Assembly (NCBI RefSeq): GCF_056712565.1
Contig: NZ_CM160072.1
Length of the DNA: 64,000 bases
Strand: one strand, 5' to 3'
This document shows, one piece after another, positions 24,835 through 40,052 of the stretch; position 1 is the first letter of the stretch; the number at the start of each line of letters is the position of its first letter. A program made the translations under genes and the position numbers. A model generated the notes under the pieces. The model did no database searches, was not told the DNA's origin, and saw only the letters and a program-made list of their open reading frames with translations.

Positions 24835-26784
24835 TCAGCAGCGGCTTAAATCAGCCTTCGCCTGAGCCAGTTTTTCTGCCGCCTGACGTAGCGGCTCCAT
24901 CAACGGCATGGTCCGTGCTGGAGCATGAAGGCGGAATCGCTGCAACTCTGTCGCACCGACAGTCAACGCCGATTCCAGCCGATGTCGTTTGGCGGTCATT
25001 TTCGCCATTACCGCTTGTCTGTCTGCTGGCGTTACCGCTTCATTCGGCCTGAACACAAAACGGCGTTCGCAACTCGCTTTCCAGTCGATAACCGCCTGGG
25101 TCAGATGATCACCAAAACCTTTTACTTGCTTAACGCTCCGTCGGGTAACGTCTGCCGCCGTTTCAATACCAAAGGACCGTAACGCCGCTTTACGCGCAGG
25201 GCCAACGCCGGGAATAGAGGCAACATCAATAAAAAATCCCTCCAGAAACTTCTGCTTCTGCCGTTCCCTTGCGGTGTCCTGAAGTGCTGCCAGATCGCGC
25301 TTTTCTTCTTCCGGTAACCCAAGAATTTCGTCCTTCATTTTTTCGAGCCTCGCCCGTTTGGCGATAAAACCTTCCAGCCCGCCCAACTGCTGGATCTGGC
25401 TGACTAAATGGTCATAGTCCATTTTCGCGCGATTAAACGCCTCACGGCGTTGCTGGATTTCTGCTTTGTACGCTTTGCTTGTCAGGCTGCCAATAATCCA
25501 GATAGCCGCCAGCACAGGAATCAAAATAATATAACTCGGTTCTGCCTGAAGGCCGCAAAACAACAGCGATAACGCTGACAGTGCGATCTCAATCAGAATG
25601 ATGTATTCGCGCCGTAACAGGCCTAAAGGAAGCGACCTGCCAGTCGGTTGGAAATGATCGGGTAATGGCAATTGCAATGCTGGCGGTGCTACTGATGCCA
25701 TCACCATCGCCCAGACTCTCGCCAGCACAAAATCACCGCCGGTGGTAATGACCTCTTCACCGAGATCAATAAAATAGATAACGCCTTGATTATCCAGCGC
25801 ACACCACGGGCAGTCAGTCAAATGAGCGGGGTAAACATGCATTGCCGAAACGGTACATTTCTTTAACTGTTGGCGTAGTAAATCAAGTGCCGCTACCCAC
25901 GCTTTTGCCGTCGGACGCCCGGTTGCCACGCCACTTTCCGTGAATGCCTGCTGAAACATGGCTTCAACATCGCCCGGTAACATCGACAGCGGAATCGATC
26001 GTGGCGGCGGTTTTAAACCACGTCGCTGATTATCTGAGGCGTAGGCATAACGGAAATGGGCAATATCCGTCTCCAGCGCATTACCTGCATCAGAGATAAG
26101 CGGTACACCGGAATAAGGATGCCGCCCACCAAACAAGATGTGAAATATCAGCAACGCAAGGCCAAAATTATCGTGATTTTCTGTGCGTTCAAAGCCGACA
26201 AATGATGGCATGGTTTGCAGCTCTGGCGGCGTAAAATGCGACACGCCGACTTCGCATAAATGCAGTGTACCATTGGCATTAATCTGAAAGGAGTCGCTAT
26301 CAATCAACACCACTTTGCTGTCGCGACCTACCATAAAGCTGTTCTGGTTTACGTCACCCACGACGTGCCCGTGCTCATGAACAGTAGCAAAAGATGAAGC
26401 AATATTGCGCGCAACATAGAGTAGAAAATCCCACGCACAATGAGGGTAACTCTGGCGACGATGTGCCGGGCTATAGATCATATGAATCGGTTCTTTACCA
26501 GAAACTTTTGGCATCATAAAACCGATAACTTTTCCGCCTCGTCCACCGTGAAGCGTTGCCTGCGGCCAGGCGACATAATTCAACAACTGCGCGTCAGCTG
26601 TCGCAGCCATAAAGGCAAGTTTGTCCTGTTTTAAGGCGGGTGGCGGCGTGTGATAAATCTTGGCGACGCTATCGACAAACTCCTCGATATCATAAACCGC
26701 ACCTTCGCCGCCTTTGCCCAGTTCACGGCCAGGCGTAACGCACTCACCAGTAGCAGTATATAAAGTGGGTTTCATGGTAACCAC
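24835..26784 (-). CDS. yegI: Ser/Thr protein kinase-like protein YegI
   Basis: 649-aa ORF; kinase-like N-terminal half, predicted TM segment, C-terminal helix-hairpin-helix-like region; start may be MKPTLYT. Confidence 0.85.
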   Translation of the reverse strand: MVTMKPTLYTATGECVTPGRELGKGGEGAVYDIEEFVDSVAKIYHTPPPALKQDKLAFMAATADAQLLNYVAWPQATLHGGRGGKVIGFMMPKVSGKEPIHMIYSPAHRRQSYPHCAWDFLLYVARNIASSFATVHEHGHVVGDVNQNSFMVGRDSKVVLIDSDSFQINANGTLHLCEVGVSHFTPPELQTMPSFVGFERTENHDNFGLALLIFHILFGGRHPYSGVPLISDAGNALETDIAHFRYAYASDNQRRGLKPPPRSIPLSMLPGDVEAMFQQAFTESGVATGRPTAKAWVAALDLLRQQLKKCTVSAMHVYPAHLTDCPWCALDNQGVIYFIDLGEEVITTGGDFVLARVWAMVMASVAPPALQLPLPDHFQPTGRSLPLGLLRREYIILIEIALSALSLLFCGLQAEPSYIILIPVLAAIWIIGSLTSKAYKAEIQQRREAFNRAKMDYDHLVSQIQQLGGLEGFIAKRARLEKMKDEILGLPEEEKRDLAALQDTARERQKQKFLEGFFIDVASIPGVGPARKAALRSFGIETAADVTRRSVKQVKGFGDHLTQAVIDWKASCERRFVFRPNEAVTPADRQAVMAKMTAKRHRLESALTVGATELQRFRLHAPARTMPLMEPLRQAAEKLAQAKADLSRC

Positions 26785-27533
26785 AGCGCCAGTGCCAACG
26801 TTTTATCATCATCCGTACGCTCGTTTACCGCCGGGCTGGACAAAAACTGCTTTAACAATTCAGGTAATAAATCGAGTTGTTCCTGCGTTGCTGACGCCAG
26901 TCCATTGAAAAACGGGGTAAAGAAAGGCACATGCGGAGAATTATCCAGCATATTTAACGCCAGTCGCTGAATACCATCCGTAAATGCTGCAACTTTGTGC
27001 GCACGCTCAGTGCTGGTGAAAGTTTCCAGTCTGGAAACGGCATCTTCATCGGTAATGAAGTGCGTCATATTGGTATATTCACCCACCATCGGCGTGAGCG
27101 GCAGTTGCAAACCGTGCCCCAAATCTACCACCACGCCGCCATCGCCAATCTGCATAATCAAGGTGCCATTAGCTGATGAAATCAATCCCAAAAACGTGCA
27201 GGCAAAATCGCGAACCGCTAATTCTTTGGCTTCCGCCTCGGCAAAAAGTCGCTGACGAATGGTCAGCACAATGTCCGTTGCGAGGACATCATTAAGCCCC
27301 AATTCCCCGCCCTGCATTTTTTGCGACATATAAGCCATCGCTTCATTGACGGCGAGCATCGCACCTTCGCCACCCTGCGAGACGCTGCCTGCGCCATCAG
27401 CGACAAATACCGACAATAATGGCTGCTGGTCATTTAGCCAGGCAACCTGCATCTGGCAGGCATCCTGGCAAGGCAAATCAGCGCTAATATGCGACGTTCC
27501 AACGGCTGATGCATAGACCAGTCGCCAGCTCAC
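26772..27533 (-). CDS. pphC: PP2C-family Ser/Thr phosphatase PphC (YegK)
   Basis: 253-aa [29 protein letters not shown]; overlaps yegI start and yegL stop. Confidence 0.85.
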
Positions 27534-28189
27534 ACTGACGTCCAGCCTTTTGGCGCTTCCAGCACAACTTCCGTTCCCGGCGTGGAGCGGGAAACCGAAC
27601 GCAGCGAACTGGATAACCAGCTAAACAGTTCACGGAATTGTAATCCCTGCAGAGACAAAGGCTGACGGACGCTGATTTGGGCCAGCGTCTTCATATCCGC
27701 CCCCTGAACACCGATGGTAAAGAAGGCAAACTTCTTATCTTCTTCCCCCTGAAACACTTTGTTGGCGGCAGCCTGCCACTCATCGGTTGGTGCGCCATCG
27801 GTGATCAGGAAAATCCACGGACGATAATAGGAAATACCATTGGCACGATATTCACGTTTCCGCTCCTCAACCATATCCAGGGCTTTGGTAATGGCAGCGC
27901 CCATTGGTGTATCGCCCTGGGCAAACAGGATGGGCGGGAAAAAATTAGCGGCGCTGGTAAAGGGTTGTTCCACATGCACCGGGCCGAACGTCACAATGCC
28001 GAGTTCCACTCTTTTTAAGGCCAGCGAATCGGCAAGCAGCTCATCGCGAAAGGTAACCAATCCGGTGTTAAGTTCATTAATGGGTCTGCCGCTCATCGAG
28101 CCAGAAACATCCAGCAGCAAAATGCAGGGGCAACGTGGTTCCGGGTTACTGGCAAAATCGCTGGTGGCAAACGTGATTTGTTCGCTCAT
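27530..28189 (-). CDS. yegL: von Willebrand factor A domain protein YegL
   Basis: 219-aa ORF with vWA MIDAS-like motif DVSGSMSG. Confidence 0.8.
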
Positions 28190-28362
28190 AAGAAATCCTT
28201 TCTTAGAGAATTATTGAGGTCCGGTATCATACCGATTGCAATAATGAAATAAGAGCAAACGAAGAAACTTTCAGAATTAGGCCCGGCGGCGCAGAAAATT
28301 TTGCTATTCGCCTCGCAAGAACGGAGAGCCGTCGATTGACACTAAGGGCGGAGTGACATAAT

Positions 28363-28513
28363 TTCAGGAGTGAGGGTAGAGCGGGGTTTCCCCCGCCCTG
28401 GTAGTCTTAGTAAGCTGGCCAGCTAATGACTAAGAGCACCACGATGATGAGTAGCTTCATCATGACCCTTTCCTTATTTAAGGCCCCTTCCTCGGGAGGG
28501 GCTTTCCCGTTTC
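28363..28513 (+). ncRNA. sibA: Sib antisense sRNA, copy 1 (approximate ends)
   Basis: Plus-strand transcript antisense to the ibs ORF, ending at the GC hairpin ggcccc...gggaggggc followed by a short T-run (28481..28513). Confidence 0.45.
28407..28463 (-). CDS. ibsA: Ibs-family type I toxin, 18 aa (MMKLLIIVVLLVISWPAY)
   Basis: Minus-strand ATGATGAAGCTACTCATCATCGTGGTGCTCTTAGTCATTAGCTGGCCAGCTTACTAA, read by hand; too short for the ORF track; A/B assignment is by position only. Confidence 0.7.
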   Translation of the reverse strand: MMKLLIIVVLLVISWPAY

Positions 28514-28690
28514 AGCGTCCCGCTGAAATCTTCGGCTTACCTCCTTTCGCCCTGTATGCAGTCTATCGCTGACTTGCGGATAAAATAGTTTCAAGTGTGA
28601 TTATTGCGTAACGACTCGCAAAGAATATTTGCTGGCAGGATCGCAGACTGCAAAGTCTGCGGATTGACAATTGGACCGTGAAGGCATACT

Positions 28691-28841
28691 TTCAGGAGTG
28701 AGGGTAGAGCGGGGTTTCCCCCGCCCTGGTAGTCTTAGTATGCTGGGTAGCTAATGACTAAGAGCACCACGATGATGAGTATCTTCATCATGACCCTTTC
28801 CTTATTTAAGGCCCCTTCCTCGGGAGGGGCTTTTCCGTTTC
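28691..28841 (+). ncRNA. sibB: Sib antisense sRNA, copy 2 (approximate ends)
   Basis: Second repeat unit; same hairpin terminator at 28809..28841. Confidence 0.45.
28735..28791 (-). CDS. ibsB: Ibs-family type I toxin, 18 aa (MMKILIIVVLLVISYPAY)
   Basis: Minus-strand small ORF within second repeat unit, read by hand. Confidence 0.7.
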   Translation of the reverse strand: MMKILIIVVLLVISYPAY

Positions 28842-28998
28842 AGCGTCCCGCTGAAATCGTCGGCTTATCTCCTTTCGCCATGCAAGCAGTCTATCGCTAA
28901 CGCGTAGATAAAATAGTTTCATGTGTTATTACTGGATGCGTGCTCGCAAATGTGCCCGTCATTCAGACGATTCCCGACAGTGTTTCATAATTCCTCCA

Positions 28999-29016
28999 TT
29001 TTTCTCCCTTATTGGC
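28999..29016 (+). promoter_or_regulatory. BaeR box upstream of mdtA (tttttctcccttattggc)
   Basis: Matches the BaeR consensus TTTTTCTCCATDATTGGC as I recall it, ~55 nt upstream of the mdtA start. Confidence 0.6.
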
Positions 29017-29069
29017 TGGCTACACTAGTATCATTCCGCGAAACGTTTCAGGAAGAGAAACTCTTAACG

Positions 29070-30317
29070 ATGAAAGGCAGTTATAAATCCCGTTGGGTAA
29101 TCGTAATCGTGGTGGTTATCGCCGCCATCGCCGCATTCTGGTTCTGGCAAGGCCGCAATGACTCCCAGAGTGCAGCCCCTGGGGCGACGAAACAAGCGCA
29201 GCAATCGCCAGCGGGTGGTCGCCGTGGTATGCGTGCCGGCCCATTAGCTCCGGTTCAGGCGGCGACCGCAGTAGAACAGGCTGTTCCGCGTTACCTCACC
29301 GGGCTTGGCACCATTACCGCCGCTAATACTGTTACGGTGCGCAGCCGCGTGGACGGTCAACTGATGGCGTTACATTTCCAGGAAGGCCAGCAGGTCAAAG
29401 CAGGCGATTTACTGGCAGAAATTGACCCAAGTCAGTTCAAAGTTGCATTAGCACAAGCCCAGGGCCAACTGGCAAAAGATAAAGCCACGCTCGCCAACGC
29501 CCGCCGTGACCTGTCGCGTTATCAACAACTGGCAAAAACCAATCTCGTATCTCGTCAGGAACTGGATGCCCAACAAGCGCTGGTCAGTGAAACCGAAGGT
29601 ACCATTAAGGCTGATGAAGCAAGCGTCGCCAGCGCGCAATTGCAACTCGACTGGAGCCGTATCACCGCACCAGTTGATGGTCGCGTTGGTCTCAAGCAGG
29701 TTGATGTTGGTAACCAAATCTCCAGTGGCGACACCACCGGGATTGTGGTGATCACCCAAACACATCCTATCGATCTGGTCTTTACTCTGCCGGAAAGCGA
29801 TATCGCCACCGTTGTACAGGCGCAAAAAGCCGGAAAACCGCTGGTGGTAGAAGCCTGGGATCGCACCAACTCGAAGAAGTTAAGTGAAGGCACGCTGTTA
29901 AGTCTCGATAACCAAATCGATGCCACTACCGGTACGATTAAAGTGAAAGCTCGCTTTAATAATCAGGATGATGCGCTTTTCCCTAATCAGTTTGTTAACG
30001 CTCGCATGTTAGTCGATACCGAACAAAACGCCGTGGTGATCCCCACCGCCGCACTGCAAATGGGCAACGAAGGCCATTTTGTCTGGGTACTGAATAGCGA
30101 AAACAAAGTCAGCAAACATCTGGTGACACCGGGCATTCAGGACAGTCAGAAAGTGGTGATCCGCGCAGGTATTTCTGCGGGCGATCGCGTAGTGACGGAC
30201 GGCATTGATCGCCTGACCGAAGGGGCGAAAGTGGAAGTGGTGGAAGCCCAGAGCACCACTACTCCGGAAGAGAAAGCCACCAGCCGCGAATACGCGAAAA
30301 AAGGAGCGCGCTCCTGA
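29070..30317 (+). CDS. mdtA: Multidrug efflux membrane-fusion (periplasmic adaptor) protein MdtA
   Basis: ORF 28923..30317; start set at [28 protein letters not shown]. Confidence 0.93.
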
Positions 30318-33300
30318 TGCAGGTGTTACCTCCGAGCAGCACAGGCGGCCCGTCGCGCCTGTTTATTATGCGTCCTGTCGCCACCACGCTGCTGATGGTG
30401 GCGATCTTACTCGCCGGGATTATCGGTTATCGCGCCCTGCCCGTTTCGGCACTGCCGGAAGTGGATTATCCGACCATTCAGGTGGTCACGCTCTACCCAG
30501 GTGCAAGCCCGGATGTCATGACCTCTGCCGTTACCGCGCCGCTCGAACGCCAGTTTGGGCAGATGTCCGGCCTGAAACAAATGTCGTCGCAAAGTTCCGG
30601 CGGTGCGTCAGTTATCACTTTACAGTTCCAGCTAACCTTACCGCTGGATGTCGCCGAGCAGGAAGTGCAGGCCGCGATTAACGCTGCCACTAACCTGTTG
30701 CCGAGCGATCTGCCTAACCCGCCGGTTTACAGCAAAGTGAACCCGGCAGATCCGCCGATCATGACGCTCGCCGTCACCTCAACCGCCATGCCGATGACCC
30801 AGGTGGAAGATATGGTGGAAACCCGCGTCGCGCAGAAAATCTCGCAGATTTCCGGCGTAGGGCTGGTCACGCTTTCCGGCGGCCAGCGTCCGGCTGTTCG
30901 CGTCAAACTTAACGCTCAGGCGATTGCCGCCCTCGGTCTGACCAGCGAAACCGTGCGCACCGCTATTACCGGCGCTAACGTTAACTCGGCAAAAGGGAGC
31001 CTCGACGGCCCTTCCCGCGCGGTCACGCTTTCCGCGAACGACCAGATGCAATCCGCCGAAGAGTATCGCCAGCTAATCATCGCCTACCAGAACGGCGCAC
31101 CGATTCGTCTGGGCGATGTCGCAACCGTAGAGCAAGGAGCAGAAAACAGCTGGCTCGGCGCGTGGGCGAACAAAGAACAGGCCATTGTGATGAATGTCCA
31201 GCGCCAGCCCGGTGCTAACATTATCTCCACCGCCGACAGCATCCGGCAGATGCTACCACAGCTCACCGAGAGTCTGCCGAAATCGGTGAAGGTGACGGTA
31301 CTTTCTGACCGTACCACCAATATCCGCGCATCGGTCGACGATACCCAGTTTGAGCTGATGATGGCTATCGCGCTGGTAGTCATGATTATCTACCTGTTTT
31401 TGCGCAATATTCCGGCGACCATCATTCCCGGCGTCGCAGTGCCGCTGTCGTTAATCGGCACCTTCGCGGTCATGGTGTTTCTCGATTTTTCAATCAATAA
31501 CCTGACGCTGATGGCGTTAACTATCGCCACCGGATTTGTGGTCGATGACGCCATCGTGGTGATCGAAAACATTTCCCGCTATATCGAAAAAGGCGAAAAA
31601 CCGCTGGCGGCGGCGCTCAAGGGCGCGGGTGAAATCGGCTTTACCATTATCTCGCTGACCTTCTCGCTGATTGCGGTGTTGATCCCCCTGCTGTTTATGG
31701 GCGATATCGTCGGGCGACTGTTCCGCGAATTTGCTATTACCCTGGCAGTCGCGATTTTGATCTCAGCGGTGGTGTCGCTAACCCTGACACCGATGATGTG
31801 CGCACGGATGCTCAGCCAGGAGTCGCTGCGTAAACAGAACCGCTTCTCCCGTGCCTCGGAGAAAATGTTCGACAGGATAATCGCCGCCTATGGTCGTGGA
31901 CTGGCGAAAGTGCTGAATCATCCGTGGCTGACCTTAAGCGTGGCGCTCAGCACGCTGCTGCTTAGCGTGCTGCTGTGGGTGTTCATTCCGAAAGGTTTCT
32001 TCCCGGTGCAGGACAACGGCATTATTCAGGGCACTTTGCAGGCACCGCAATCCAGCTCCTTTGCCAATATGGCCCAGCGGCAACGCCAGGTCGCGGACGT
32101 GATTTTGCAGGATCCGGCAGTGCAAAGTTTGACCTCATTTGTTGGCGTTGATGGCACTAACCCGTCGCTGAACAGTGCGCGTTTACAGATCAATCTCAAA
32201 CCACTGGATGAACGAGATGACCGGGTGCAAAAAGTCATCGCCCGTCTGCAAACGGCGGTGGATAAAGTGCCGGGCGTCGATCTCTTCCTGCAACCAACGC
32301 AGGACCTGACTATTGATACTCAGGTCAGCCGCACCCAGTACCAGTTTACCTTGCAGGCCACGTCACTGGATGCGCTCAGTACCTGGGTGCCACAGTTGAT
32401 GGAAAAACTCCAGCAGCTGCCACAGCTTTCTGATGTCTCCAGCGACTGGCAGGACAAAGGGCTGGTGGCGTATGTCAATGTCGACAGGGACAGCGCCAGC
32501 CGTCTGGGGATCAGCATGGCGGATGTCGATAACGCCCTGTACAACGCGTTTGGTCAGCGACTGATTTCCACTATTTATACTCAGGCTAACCAGTATCGCG
32601 TGGTACTGGAACACAACACCGAAAATACCCCAGGCCTCGCGGCGCTGGATACCATTCGCCTGACCAGCAGCGACGGTGGCGTGGTGCCGTTAAGCTCAAT
32701 TGCCAAAATTGAGCAGCGTTTTGCGCCGCTTTCCATCAACCATCTGGATCAGTTCCCGGTAACGACTATCTCCTTTAACGTGCCGGATAACTATTCGCTG
32801 GGCGATGCGGTGCAAGCGATTATGGACACAGAGAAGACGCTGAATCTGCCGGTGGATATCACCACGCAGTTCCAGGGCAGCACCCTCGCCTTCCAGTCAG
32901 CGCTGGGCAGCACTGTCTGGCTGATTGTCGCGGCGGTGGTGGCGATGTATATCGTGCTCGGCATTCTGTACGAGAGCTTTATTCACCCGATCACCATTCT
33001 CTCGACGCTACCCACCGCAGGGGTCGGCGCGCTGCTGGCGTTAATGATTGCCGGTAGCGAACTGGATGTGATTGCCATTATCGGCATTATTTTGCTGATC
33101 GGTATCGTGAAGAAGAACGCCATCATGATGATCGACTTCGCGCTGGCTGCTGAGCGCGAGCAAGGCATGTCGCCGCGCGAAGCTATTTACCAGGCTTGTC
33201 TGTTGCGTTTTCGTCCGATCCTGATGACCACTCTGGCGGCTCTGCTTGGTGCGCTGCCGCTGATGTTGAGTACCGGGGTCGGCGCGGAACTGCGTCGTCC

Positions 33301-33439
33301 GTTAGGTATCGGCATGGTCGGCGGTCTGATTGTCAGCCAGGTGCTGACGCTGTTTACCACGCCGGTGATTTATCTGCTGTTCGACCGTCTGGCATTGTGG
33401 ACCAAAAGCCGCTTTGCCCGTCATGAAGAGGAGGCGTAA
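30317..33439 (+). CDS. mdtB: RND multidrug efflux transporter MdtB
   Basis: 1040-aa ORF with 12-TM RND architecture. Confidence 0.95.
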
Positions 33440-36400
33440 GTGAAGTTTTTTGCCCTCTTCATTTACCGCCCGGTGGCGACGATTTTACTGTCGGTCGCCA
33501 TTACCCTGTGCGGCATACTGGGTTTCCGTATGCTGCCAGTCGCCCCGCTGCCGCAGGTCGATTTTCCGGTGATCATGGTCAGCGCCTCGCTGCCCGGTGC
33601 GTCACCAGAAACAATGGCGTCTTCCGTTGCCACGCCGCTGGAGCGCTCACTTGGGCGCATTGCCGGAGTCAGCGAAATGACCTCCAGCAGTTCGCTCGGC
33701 AGCACGCGCATTATTTTGCAGTTTGATTTTGACCGGGATATCAACGGCGCAGCGCGCGATGTGCAGGCGGCGATCAACGCCGCGCAAAGTCTGCTACCCA
33801 GCGGGATGCCCAGCCGTCCGACCTATCGCAAAGCGAACCCGTCGGATGCGCCAATTATGATCCTCACGCTGACATCCGATACTTATTCGCAGGGTGAACT
33901 GTACGATTTCGCCTCGACACAGCTGGCTCCGACGATTTCGCAAATCGACGGTGTCGGTGATGTCGATGTTGGCGGCAGCTCGCTGCCCGCCGTACGCGTC
34001 GGGCTGAATCCGCAGGCGCTGTTTAATCAGGGCGTCTCGCTGGACGACGTACGCACCGCCATCAGCAATGCCAACGTGCGTAAACCGCAGGGGGCGCTGG
34101 AAGATGGTACTCACCGCTGGCAGATCCAGACTAACGATGAACTGAAAACCGCCGCTGAATATCAGCCACTGATTATTCATTACAACAACGGCGGCGCGGT
34201 TCGTCTGGGCGATGTGGCGACGGTGACCGACTCAGTACAGGATGTGCGCAACGCCGGGATGACCAACGCCAAACCGGCTATTTTGCTGATGATCCGCAAG
34301 CTGCCGGAAGCCAACATTATCCAGACGGTAGACAGCATCCGCGCCCGTCTGCCGGAATTACAATCCACCATCCCGGCAGCAATTGATCTGCAAATTGCCC
34401 AGGATCGCTCCCCTACTATCCGCGCGTCGCTGGAAGAGGTTGAGCAGACGCTGATTATCTCGGTGGCGCTGGTGATTCTGGTGGTGTTTTTGTTCCTGCG
34501 TTCGGGTCGCGCCACCATTATTCCCGCCGTTGCGGTGCCGGTTTCGCTGATTGGTACGTTTGCGGCGATGTACCTGTGTGGTTTCAGTCTCAATAATCTT
34601 TCGTTAATGGCGCTCACCATCGCCACTGGCTTTGTGGTGGATGACGCCATCGTGGTGCTGGAAAACATTGCCCGTCATCTGGAGGCGGGGATGAAACCGC
34701 TACAGGCCGCGCTGCAAGGTACTCGCGAAGTCGGCTTTACGGTGCTGTCGATGAGTCTGTCACTGGTGGCGGTGTTCCTGCCGCTGCTGTTGATGGGCGG
34801 ATTGCCGGGTCGCCTGTTACGCGAGTTTGCCGTGACGCTTTCTGTCGCCATTGGTATTTCGCTGCTGGTTTCCCTGACGTTAACGCCGATGATGTGCGGC
34901 TGGATGCTAAAAGCCAGCAAGCCGCGCGAGCAAAAGCGACTGCGTGGCTTTGGTCGCATGTTGGTAGCCCTGCAACAAGGCTATGGCAAGTCGCTGAAAT
35001 GGGTGCTCAATCATACCCGTCTGGTGGGCGTGGTGCTGCTTGGCACCATTGCGCTGAATATCTGGCTGTATATCTCGATCCCGAAAACCTTCTTCCCGGA
35101 GCAGGACACCGGCGTACTGATGGGCGGGATACAGGCTGACCAGAGTATTTCGTTTCAGGCGATGCGCGGTAAGTTGCAGGACTTCATGAAAATTATCCGT
35201 GACGATCCGGCGGTGGATAATGTCACCGGCTTTACCGGCGGTTCACGGGTGAACAGTGGAATGATGTTTATCACCCTTAAACCACGCGGCGAGCGGAGCG
35301 AAACGGCCCAACAGATTATCGATCGCTTGCGTAAAAAACTGGCGAAAGAACCGGGAGCGAATCTGTTCCTGATGGCGGTACAGGATATTCGCGTTGGCGG
35401 ACGTCAGGCTAACGCCAGTTACCAGTACACGTTGTTATCCGACGACCTGGCGGCACTGCGCGAATGGGAGCCGAAAATCCGCAAAAAACTGGCGACATTG
35501 CCAGAGCTGGCTGATGTTAACTCCGATCAGGAAGATAATGGCGCGGAGATGAACCTTATTTACGATCGCGACACCATGGCGCGATTGGGAATTGACGTGC
35601 AAGCCGCCAACAGCCTGTTAAATAACGCCTTCGGTCAGCGGCAAATCTCGACCATTTACCAGCCGATGAACCAGTACAAAGTGGTGATGGAAGTTGATCC
35701 GCGCTATACCCAGGACATCAGTGCACTGGAAAAAATGTTCGTTATCAATAACGAAGGAAAAGCGATCCCGCTGTCGTATTTCGCTAAATGGCAACCGGCG
35801 AACGCTCCACTGTCGGTGAATCATCAGGGATTATCGGCGGCCTCGACCATTTCGTTCAACCTGCCGACCGGGAAATCGCTCTCGGACGCCAGTGCGGCGA
35901 TCGATCGCGCAATGACCCAGCTTGGTGTGCCTTCGACGGTGCGCGGCAGTTTTGCCGGAACAGCGCAAGTGTTCCAGGAGACGATGAACTCACAGGTGAT
36001 CCTGATTATCGCCGCCATCGCCACGGTATATATCGTACTGGGTATCCTTTACGAGAGTTATGTGCATCCACTGACGATTCTCTCCACCCTACCCTCGGCG
36101 GGCGTCGGAGCGCTGTTGGCGCTGCAGCTGTTCAATGCCCCGTTCAGCCTAATTGCGCTGATAGGGATCATGTTATTAATCGGCATCGTGAAGAAAAACG
36201 CCATTATGATGGTCTATTTTGCGCTTGAAGCCCAACGGCACGGTAACCTGACGCCGCAGGAAGCTATTTTCCAGGCCTGTCTGCTGCGTTTTCGCCCGAT
36301 TATGATGACTACCCTGGCGGCGCTGTTTGGTGCGCTGCCGCTGGTATTGTCGGGCGGTGACGGCTCGGAGTTGCGGCAACCATTGGGGATCACCATTGTC

Positions 36401-36517
36401 GGCGGTCTGGTCATGAGCCAGCTTCTGACGCTGTATACCACGCCGGTGGTGTATCTCTTTTTCGACCGTCTGCGGCTGCGTTTTTCGCGTAAACCTAAAC
36501 AAGCGGTAACCGAGTAA
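33440..36517 (+). CDS. mdtC: RND multidrug efflux transporter MdtC
   Basis: 1025-aa [32 protein letters not shown]. Confidence 0.95.
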
Positions 36518-37933
36518 ATGACAGATCTTCCCGACAGCACCCGCTGGCAATTGTGGATTGTGGCTTTCGGCTTCTTTATGCAGTCGCTGGACACCACCAT
36601 CGTTAACACCGCGCTTCCCTCAATGGCGCAAAGCCTCGGGGAAAGTCCGTTGCATATGCACATGGTCATTGTCTCTTATGTACTGACCGTGGCGGTGATG
36701 CTGCCCGCCAGCGGCTGGCTGGCGGACAAAGTCGGCGTGCGCAATATTTTCTTTACCGCCATCGTGCTGTTTACTCTCGGTTCACTGTTTTGCGCGCTTT
36801 CCGGCACGCTGAACGAACTGTTGCTGGCACGCGCGCTACAGGGCGTTGGCGGCGCGATGATGGTGCCGGTCGGCAGGTTGACGGTGATGAAAATCGTACC
36901 ACGCGAGCAATATATGGCGGCGATGACCTTTGTCACGCTGCCCGGTCAGGTCGGGCCGCTGCTTGGCCCGGCGCTCGGAGGTCTGCTGGTGGAGTACGCA
37001 TCGTGGCACTGGATCTTTTTGATCAACATTCCGGTGGGGATTATTGGCGCGATCGCCACACTGATGTTAATGCCGAACTACACCATGCAGACGCGGCGCT
37101 TTGATCTCTCCGGCTTTCTGTTGCTGGCGGTTGGCATGGCAGTCTTAACCCTGGCGCTGGACGGCAGTAAAGGTACAGGTTTCTCGCCGCTGGCGATTGC
37201 TGGCCTGGTCGCAGTTGGCGTGGTAGCACTGGTGCTTTATCTGCTGCACGCCCAAAATAACAACCGCGCCCTGTTCAGTCTGAAACTGTTCCGCACTCGT
37301 ACCTTTTCGCTGGGCCTGGCGGGGAGCTTTGCCGGACGTATTGGCAGTGGCATGTTGCCCTTTATGACACCGGTTTTCCTGCAAATTGGTCTCGGTTTCT
37401 CGCCGTTTCATGCCGGACTGATGATGATCCCGATGGTACTCGGCAGCATGGGAATGAAGCGAATTGTGGTACAGGTAGTGAATCGCTTTGGTTATCGTCG
37501 GGTACTGGTGGCGACCACGCTGGGCCTGTCGCTGGTCACCCTGTTGTTTATGACTACCGCTCTGCTGGGCTGGTACTACGTTTTGCCGTTCGTCCTGTTT
37601 TTACAAGGAATGGTCAACTCGACGCGTTTCTCCTCCATGAACACCCTGACGCTGAAAGATCTCCCGGACAACCTGGCGAGCAGCGGCAACAGTCTGCTGT
37701 CGATGATTATGCAATTGTCGATGAGTATTGGCGTCACCATCGCCGGGCTGTTGCTGGGACTTTTTGGTTCGCAGCATGTCAGCGTCGACAGCGGCACCAC
37801 ACAAACCGTCTTTATGTACACCTGGCTTAGCATGGCGTTTATCATCGCCCTTCCGGCGTTTGTCTTTGCCAGAGTGCCGAGCGATACGCATCAAAATGTG
37901 GCTATTTCACGGCGAAAAAGGAGCGCGCAATGA
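36518..37933 (+). CDS. mdtD: MFS transporter MdtD
   Basis: 471-aa ORF with 14-TM MFS pattern. Confidence 0.93.
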
Positions 37934-39333
37934 AGTTCTGGCGACCCGGTATTACCGGCAAACTGTTTCTGGCGATTTTCGCCACCTGCATTGTCTTATT
38001 GATCACGATGCACTGGGCGGTACGTATCAGTTTTGAGCGCGGCTTTATCGATTACATCAAGCATGGTAATGAACAACGGCTGCAAATGCTCGGCGATGCG
38101 CTTGGTGAGCAGTACGCCCAGCACGGGAACTGGCGCTTCCTGCGTAATAACGATCGCTTTGTATTTCAGATCCTACGTTCACTGGAGCATGATAACAACG
38201 AAGATAAGCCCGGCCCCGGTATGCCACCACACGGCTGGCGCACGCAATTTTGGGTGGTTGATCAAAATAATAAAGTGCTGGTTGGCCCGCGAGCACCGGT
38301 TCCACCCGACGGCACACGGCGGCCCATTATGGTCAATGGTGCGGAAGTTGGCGCGGTGATCGCCTCCCCTGTTGAACGACTGACCCGTAATACTGATATC
38401 AATTTTGACAGACAACAGCGGCAAACCAGTTGGCTGATTGTGGCTTTATCTACCTTATTAGCGGCGCTGGCGACATTCCCACTGGCGCGCGGTTTGCTGG
38501 CTCCGGTAAAACGACTGGTGGATGGCACGCACAAACTGGCAGCGGGTGATTTCACTACTCGCGTAGCCCCCACCAGCGAAGATGAGTTGGGCAGACTGGC
38601 AGAGGATTTCAATCAACTCGCCAGCACACTGGAGAAAAACCAGCAGATGCGCCGCGATTTTATGGCCGATATTTCTCATGAACTGCGCACGCCTTTAGCA
38701 GTACTGCGCGGCGAACTGGAAGCCATTCAGGATGGTGTGCGTAAATTCACGCCGGAGACGCTGGCTTCTTTACAGGCAGAAGTCGGAACACTGACAAAAC
38801 TGGTTGACGATCTCCATCAATTGTCTATGTCTGATGAAGGCGCTCTCGCCTATCAAAAAGCACCGGTAGATTTGATCCCACTGCTGGAAGTGGCGGGAGG
38901 CGCATTTCGCGAACGATTCGCCAGCCGTGGCCTGAAATTGCAATTTTCCCTGCCAGACAGTATTACCGTATTTGGCGATCGCGATCGTTTAATGCAGTTG
39001 TTCAATAACTTACTGGAAAACAGCCTGCGCTACACTGACAGCGGCGGCAGCCTGAAAATCTCTGCCGAACAGCACGACAAAACGGTGCGCCTGACCTTTG
39101 CCGACAGTGCGCCGGGTGTCAGTGACGATCAGCTACAAAAATTGTTTGAACGTTTTTATCGCACCGAAGGTTCCCGCAACCGCGCCAGCGGTGGTTCCGG
39201 GCTGGGGCTGGCGATTTGCCTGAACATTGTTGAAGCACATAACGGCCGCATTATTGCCGCCCATTCGCCTTTTGGCGGGCTTAGCATTACAGTAGAGTTA
39301 CCGCTGGAACGGGATTTACAGAGAGAAGTATGA
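37930..39333 (+). CDS. baeS: Envelope-stress sensor histidine kinase BaeS
   Basis: 467-aa ORF; H-box ISHELRTPL; HAMP and ATPase motifs. Confidence 0.93.
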
Positions 39334-40052
39334 CCGAGTTACCAATCGACGAAAACACACCGCGTATTTTGATCGTGGAAGATGAACCGAAGCTGGGGCA
39401 GTTGCTCATTGATTATCTGCGTGCTGCGAGCTATGCGCCAACGTTGATTAGCCACGGCGATCAGGTACTGCCATATGTGCGCCAGACACCACCGGATCTG
39501 ATCCTGTTGGATCTGATGCTCCCTGGCACCGATGGCCTGACGCTGTGCCGGGAAATTCGTCGTTTTTCTGACATTCCGATCGTGATGGTGACGGCAAAAA
39601 TCGAAGAGATCGACCGCCTGCTGGGGTTGGAGATTGGCGCAGATGACTATATCTGCAAGCCGTACAGCCCACGGGAAGTGGTAGCGCGCGTCAAAACCAT
39701 TTTGCGCCGTTGCAAACCGCAGCGTGAGTTGCAGCAACAGGATGCTGAAAGCCCGTTGATTATCGACGAAGGTCGTTTTCAGGCTTCCTGGCGCGGTAAA
39801 ATGCTTGACCTGACGCCTGCAGAATTTCGTCTGCTGAAAACGCTCTCTCATGAACCAGGAAAAGTGTTCTCCCGCGAGCAGTTGCTGAACCATCTTTATG
39901 ACGACTACCGCGTGGTAACCGACCGTACCATCGACAGCCACATTAAAAACCTGCGCCGCAAGCTGGAATCTCTCGACGCCGAACAGTCATTTATCCGCGC
40001 CGTTTACGGCGTCGGTTACCGCTGGGAAGCCGACGCCTGCCGCATCGTTTAA
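39330..40052 (+). CDS. baeR: OmpR-family response regulator BaeR
   Basis: 240-aa ORF; receiver domain and winged-helix C-terminus. Confidence 0.95.

Follow-up and report, generated by a model that had tools for sequence, protein, structure and literature searches.

The mdtA promoter raises the question of how far the operator of the two-component regulator BaeR extends, and whether the published 18-bp BaeR box describes the whole of it. We addressed this question in a 64-kb stretch of DNA (64,000 nucleotides), referred to throughout as the window. The 18-bp sequence TTTTTCTCCCTTATTGGC (28999–29016, plus strand) lies 54–71 nt upstream of the mdtA ATG at 29070 and agrees at 17 of 18 positions with TTTTTCTCCATDATTGGC, the consensus of Nishino 2005 as quoted in PMC3799227 and PMC3915751; the sole mismatch is a C for an A at position 10. 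It is the single match with at most one mismatch on the two strands of the window, and no match of this quality was found in any of 100 dinucleotide-preserving shuffles. When up to three mismatches to the consensus were allowed, the mdtA box was still the only match in the window, with 0.13 expected. The sequence-only reading had proposed a close BaeR-consensus match at this position, and the letters it recorded, the 17/18 agreement and the shuffles all bear this out. We conclude that 28999–29016 is the known, already published BaeR box of the E. coli mdtA promoter. The Salmonella mdtA site is termed "well characterised" in PMC3160322.

E. coli ATCC 11775 and several other E. coli strains among the matches listed share the region around the box (28200–29400) at 100% identity, and more than 5200 complete E. 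coli genomes carry it. The mdtA promoter (28976–29077) is identical to that of K-12, with no indels, and among 5301 matching E. coli records, 5291 show 100% identity over a 53-nt segment that includes the box and the −10 region (28983–29035). The window is E. coli chromosome, with an mdtA promoter that is ordinary species backbone; the expectation of backbone regulation agrees with a promoter that is identical to K-12 and near-fixed across E. coli records. RefSeq annotation of the identical sequence places mdtA at 29070–30317 (NCBIfam NF008589, 722.6 bits against a cut-off of 391) and also includes mdtB (30317–33439); open reading frames for mdtC (33440–36517) and mdtD/iceT (36518–37933) follow, and then baeS (37930–39333; NF007837, 928.9 bits against 603) and baeR (39330–40052; NF007982, 450.5 bits against 380), the gene of the regulator that binds the box. 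All six are on the plus strand, their reading frames touch or overlap at their ends, and MdtA, BaeS and BaeR each score above their own NCBIfam equivalog cut-off. The box stands directly 5′ of the first gene of this BaeR-activated unit, mdtABCD-baeSR. A mechanically generated list of open reading frames extended the mdtA frame back to a GTG at 28923 (28923–30317, plus strand), through the BaeR box; we rejected this start as an ORF-calling artefact because mdtA is annotated from the ATG at 29070. A second box-like sequence, TTTATCTACCTTATTAGC, lies inside baeS (38445–38462, plus strand) and differs from the mdtA box at three positions (0.06 expected per window). We considered it as a BaeR box or an internal baeR promoter element and rejected it; with more than three mismatches to the published consensus and a broken CTCC core, it is probably a chance occurrence.

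On the other side of the promoter, yegI (protein kinase), pphC (Ser/Thr phosphatase) and yegL (vWA domain protein) occupy 24835–28189 on the minus strand and are transcribed away from mdtA; the RefSeq order on the identical sequence is yegI-pphC-yegL (minus), two Ibs toxin genes, mdtA and mdtB. The interval between yegL and mdtA holds tandem type I toxin-antitoxin loci, each with a Sib antitoxin RNA and an Ibs toxin, as in K-12 (sibA/ibsA, sibB/ibsB). The two SIB_RNA copies are at 28336–28478 and 28664–28806 on the plus strand (Rfam, 141 and 138.6 bits, respectively), and the two ibs coding sequences annotated by RefSeq on the identical sequence are at 28407–28463 and 28735–28791 on the minus strand. 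A G+C-rich hairpin followed by a T run, CCCTTCCTCGGGAGGGG CTTTTCCGTT (28813–28829, plus strand), lies ~170 nt upstream of the BaeR box; it probably terminates the second Sib RNA at its 3′ end, and in that role would shield the mdtA promoter from upstream transcription.

We next placed published in vivo data for BaeR on the promoter. Over 28840–29100 the window aligns collinearly with K-12 and shows no indels (window coordinate equals K-12 coordinate minus 2124946), and the ChIP-exo support described here consists of K-12 data mapped onto the window through the identical sequence. BaeR peak_5 (K-12 2153931–2153967, signal-to-noise 10.96) and peak_6 (K-12 2153972–2153998, signal-to-noise 14.99; PMC7657598, Data Set S2) map to 28985–29021 and 29026–29052, respectively, and these two mdtA peaks have the highest signal-to-noise in the BaeR table (PMC7657598). 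The whole of the BaeR box falls within peak_5, inside the experimentally bound region, and peak_6 extends over the conserved −10 block and the probable start region. RNA-seq from the study that reported these peaks shows expression of mdtA, mdtB, mdtC, iceT (mdtD) and baeS falling by log2 4.0, 3.8, 3.6, 3.4 and 4.6, respectively, when baeR is knocked out and ethanol stress applied (PMC7657598), which supports autoregulation. Hence the autoregulated control of mdtABCD-baeSR that had been suggested from the letters stands, with operon genes dropping by log2 3.4–4.6 in the knockout and the mdtA box under a BaeR peak. Phosphorylated BaeR, an OmpR/PhoB-family regulator encoded at the end of the operon, would bind the box and activate a promoter lacking a recognisable −35 element; mdtABCD-baeSR would thereby be induced under envelope stress, in a positive autoregulatory loop. 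The best explanation of the locus, to which we assign a probability of roughly 0.9, is that the 18-mer is the known BaeR box and that phosphorylated BaeR acts there; the larger operator proposed below is only somewhat more likely than not.

A scan for promoters found no −35/−10 pair for the mdtA promoter. The only σ70-like match, TTCAGA-18-CATAAT (28962–28991), occurs at shuffle-level frequency and would place the box downstream of the start; we rejected it as the main promoter because of this chance-level frequency and because a box downstream of the start does not fit activation. Three overlapping −10 candidates on the plus strand, TAmACT (29021–29026), TAGTAT (29026–29031) and TATCAT (29029–29034), lie within 29020–29035, and the choice among them is inferred; TATCAT is the best match to TATAAT, with 5/6 positions. 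With TATCAT as the −10 element and a start near 29041, the BaeR box would extend from approximately −42 to −25, overlapping the −35 position in the manner of a pho box, and the conserved repeat upstream of it (H1-H2, below) would lie at approximately −58 to −42.

To ask which parts of the promoter are conserved, we carried out a protein-guided scan with one genome per species, which yielded 80 MdtA loci (Escherichia, Citrobacter, Enterobacter, Klebsiella, Raoultella, Kluyvera, Lelliottia, Cedecea, Atlantibacter and other genera), and 79 Enterobacteriaceae promoters were scored. Two alignments, one ungapped and anchored on the −10 block (76 distinct sequences) and one made with MAFFT (78 distinct sequences), agree on a conserved block, a variable island and a second conserved block. 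The first block, TTTCATAwTTCCTCCATTTTT (28983–29003, plus strand), which ends in a T run, is near-invariant across the family in both sets of sequences. The island between this block and the −10 region (29004–29019) carries 0.1–1.0 bits per position over 29004–29016, and the T at 29017 is its sole near-invariant base. The second block, CTAmACTAGTATCATT (29020–29035), is the core promoter and is near-invariant in both alignments. Only the first five bases of the BaeR box (TTTTT) fall within the first conserved block; conservation of the other 13 of its 18 bases (29004–29016) is restricted to Escherichia and Citrobacter. The orthologous 18-mer has at least 14/18 consensus matches in 18 of the 79 promoters, and at least 12/18 in all 23 promoters of the Escherichia/Citrobacter type, which include a Raoultella-titled MAG that has exactly the C. 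braakii promoter. The remaining 56 promoters have 7–13 consensus matches, mostly through the T run.

Two further conserved stretches flank these blocks. CATTCAGACGATTCCCGACAGTG (28961–28982, plus strand), just 5′ of the first block, is moderately to highly conserved in ~78 Enterobacteriaceae mdtA promoters, and could represent further regulator sites or an UP-like element. A motif in the 5′-UTR, TTTCAGGAnGAGA (29046–29058, plus strand), is almost invariant across genera and ends ~11 nt before the ATG; its conservation exceeds what a Shine-Dalgarno sequence alone would need.

Within the first block and the box we recognised tandem direct repeats on the plus strand with a period of ~10–11 bp, beginning at 28983 (TTTCAT), 28994 (CTCCAT) and 29004 (CTCCCT), which we term H1, H2 and H3. 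H1 (28983–28988) lies 11 bp upstream of H2 and reads TTTCAT in 51 and TTCCAT, the form found in many genera, in 18 of the 79 orthologous promoters, together 69/79. H2 (28994–28999) is the most conserved element of the promoter, at ~2 bits per column, being CTCCAT in 74 of the 79 promoters and CTTCAT in the other 5; the H1-N5-H2 arrangement is kept in at least 74 of the 79 species. H3 (29004–29009) is the core of the BaeR box. It is CTCCCT in only 19/79 promoters, all carrying Escherichia or Citrobacter labels except the Raoultella-titled MAG with the C. braakii promoter, and it aligns with CTCCAT of K-12 spy and CTCCAC of K-12 acrD. The ATTGGC tail of the box (29011–29016, plus strand) is common to K-12 mdtA, spy and acrD; at mdtA it varies even inside Escherichia (ATTGAC, ATTAGC). 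H3 begins 10 bp, not 11 bp, after H2, a spacing that counts against a regular array. Peak_5 spans part of H1 and all of H2 and H3, so ChIP-exo does not distinguish which half-sites are contacted.

We then compared the mdtA promoter with the K-12 spy and acrD promoters. The 18-mers are TTTTTCTCCATAATTGGC at spy (L003 282–265, minus strand) and TTTTTCTCCACGATTGGC at acrD (L004 508–525), and the three boxes have 15 invariant positions in common, those of ATTGGC included. With respect to the Nishino box, the mdtA site agrees with that of K-12 in every respect: locus, sequence, regulator and target operon are the same, the site is bound in vivo, and the 18-mer shows no difference. Aligning the spy promoters of four genomes (E. 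coli, Salmonella and two Citrobacter) shows that TTCTTTTTTTCTyCAyAATTGGCG is kept and ATTGGC is invariant, the box being retained in 4/4 genomes from three genera; the matches to spy homologues in our search were almost only from Salmonella, Escherichia and Citrobacter. The repeat arrangement seen at mdtA recurs in the form yTyCwT-N5-CTnCAh at acrD (CTCCTT-N5-CTCCAC-GATTGGC), at the spy box (TTTCTT-N5-CTCCAT-AATTGGC) and at an upstream spy site (CTTCAT-N5-CTGCAA). A different BaeR box, TCTNCANAA, was derived from the spy promoter by Yamamoto et al. 2008. The upstream spy site, which lies under spy ChIP-exo peak_2, fits it exactly (TCTGCAAAA), and its CTnCA core is common to the mdtA site; by eye, the mdtA half-sites agree with it at 5/7 specified positions for TCTCCCTTA (29003–29011) and at 4/7 for CCTCCATTT (28993–29001). 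The spy ChIP-exo peaks (L003 178–212 and 324–344) flank the canonical spy box (265–282) without overlapping it; the upstream one falls on the CTTCAT-N5-CTGCAA repeat, and the downstream one on the core promoter. At the tnaC leader and at intF, where the BaeR ChIP-exo peaks are weaker, inspection revealed no CTCCAT-type repeat, and these peaks hence lend the half-site model no support.

Operators of the OmpR/PhoB family are as a rule direct repeats with an 11-bp period; the pho box of PhoB, in which a 4-bp A/T spacer separates two 7-bp direct repeats, has this 11-bp period and replaces the −35 element. The best non-self NCBIfam matches of the BaeR encoded in the window are PhoB and CreB, and by this score PhoB counts as one of BaeR's nearest paralogues. 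The mdtA promoter resembles the pho box in having 11-bp-phased direct repeats that end in CAT, an A/T spacer and no recognisable −35 element, and the distance from the end of the box to the −10 element is 10 bp for the pho box and 12 bp for the mdtA 18-mer, assuming that TATCAT is used. It differs from the pho box in the sequence of the repeat (yTyCAT/CTCCAT rather than CTGTCAT) and in having three units rather than two, and the mdtA geometry rests on an inferred start. Two regulators of RND efflux operons offer a second comparison: DzrR (Dickeya, Burkholderia) has been footprinted on CTCCAT-N5-CTCCAT (PMC10052836), and AdeR (A. baumannii) has been crystallised on the reverse complement of CTCCACACTT-N-CTCCACACTT (PMC5766154). 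Their operators share with mdtA direct repeats of CTCCAC or CTCCAT, the 11-bp period and the control of RND efflux operons. However, these are other regulators and the AdeR site is intercistronic, so the likeness is one of analogy and not of membership; BaeR scores 153 bits on the AdeR NCBIfam model, against a cut-off of 340.

Because 28983–29003 is conserved, because the repeats recur at spy and acrD, and because 11-bp repeats are usual in the family, we lean, on the strength of these sequence comparisons, towards an operator that is larger than the 18-mer and that would comprise all three half-sites, phased at 11 and 10 bp, together with the ATTGGC that follows them (28983–29016). BaeR would bind this array head to tail, as PhoB does on the pho box. 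H1-H2 would be the ancestral part, kept across the Enterobacteriaceae, and H3 with ATTGGC, which make up most of the 18-mer, would be a promoter-proximal extension specific to Escherichia and Citrobacter. The alignments also suggest that the Nishino consensus covers the T-rich spacer, the proximal half-site and the 3′ tail, and not the full operator. A stronger version of this proposal, to which we give slightly less than even odds, is that the 18-bp box misdescribes the operator, the ancestral BaeR site being a pho-box-like TTyCAT-N5-CTCCAT (28983–28999) and 29004–29016 a recently acquired third half-site plus ATTGGC in Escherichia and Citrobacter; if true, there has been operator extension or turnover inside an otherwise fixed promoter frame. 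The degenerate repeat pattern occurs once per window, with 0.86 expected, which is chance level, and it was derived after the sites had been seen; for both reasons it is not usable as evidence of significance.

The alternative that survives best, although we consider it unlikely, is that the 18-bp box is the complete BaeR site, that 28983–29003 serves another regulator, an UP-like element or contacts with RNA polymerase, and that genera lacking the box use a diverged BaeR specificity or a different site. The occurrence of the 18-mer, ATTGGC included, in three unrelated K-12 promoters is what this predicts, as are the conservation of the spy copy across three genera and the location of the mdtA 18-mer within peak_5. 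However, 13 of its 18 positions are unconserved in 57 of the 79 species, all of which keep an mdtA orthologue and the same flanking conserved blocks, and the conserved block shares its CTCCAT core with the box and has a partner for it 11 bp upstream. The spy BaeR peaks also speak against it, being on the upstream repeat and the core promoter, not on the 18-mer. As for another regulator, no CpxR box (GTAAA-N5-GTAAA, up to two mismatches) was found between 28623 and 29821, which includes the promoter interval 28850–29070, the nearest being at 28608–28622, and the CpxR ChIP-exo table has no peak at mdtA (PMC7657598).

A second alternative, which we regard as improbable, takes the opposite position: the H1-H2 repeat alone is the functional operator, and the resemblance that 28999–29016 bears to the boxes of spy and acrD is a by-product, specific to the lineage and of little function. 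The family-wide conservation of H1-H2, its 11-bp spacing, which is that seen at spy and acrD whereas H2 and H3 are 10 bp apart, and the variability of ATTGGC at mdtA even within Escherichia are all consistent with this. However, a 17/18 consensus match that is absent from all 100 shuffles is not chance, nearly all matching E. coli records (5291/5301) are identical over the 53 nt that run from H1 to the −10 region, and ATTGGC is invariant at spy. Finally, that 28999–29016 is a chance match with no regulatory role can be dismissed, since only the T-rich, low-complexity 5′ half of the motif speaks for it, and it is contradicted by the 0/100 shuffles at up to one mismatch, by the position of the match at the correct promoter and inside an in vivo BaeR peak, and by the ChIP-exo and expression data. 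We retain as the preferred reading the binding of phosphorylated BaeR to the 18-mer as part of a probable larger operator.

The mdtA site controls a multidrug and metal efflux pump as well as its own two-component regulator, and belongs to circuitry for envelope stress and intrinsic resistance that has been well studied in E. coli; the presence of the box in the window simply confirms a normal E. coli backbone. Our sole addition to the known picture is comparative: as judged from the aligned promoters, most of the 18-mer appears to be lineage-specific at mdtA, and the deeply conserved element appears to be the adjacent 11-bp-phased repeat. Searches for the BaeR regulon that use the 18-mer consensus outside Escherichia and Citrobacter will miss the mdtA site itself, and a direct-repeat model, yTyCAT-N5-CTnCAw, will probably transfer better across genera.
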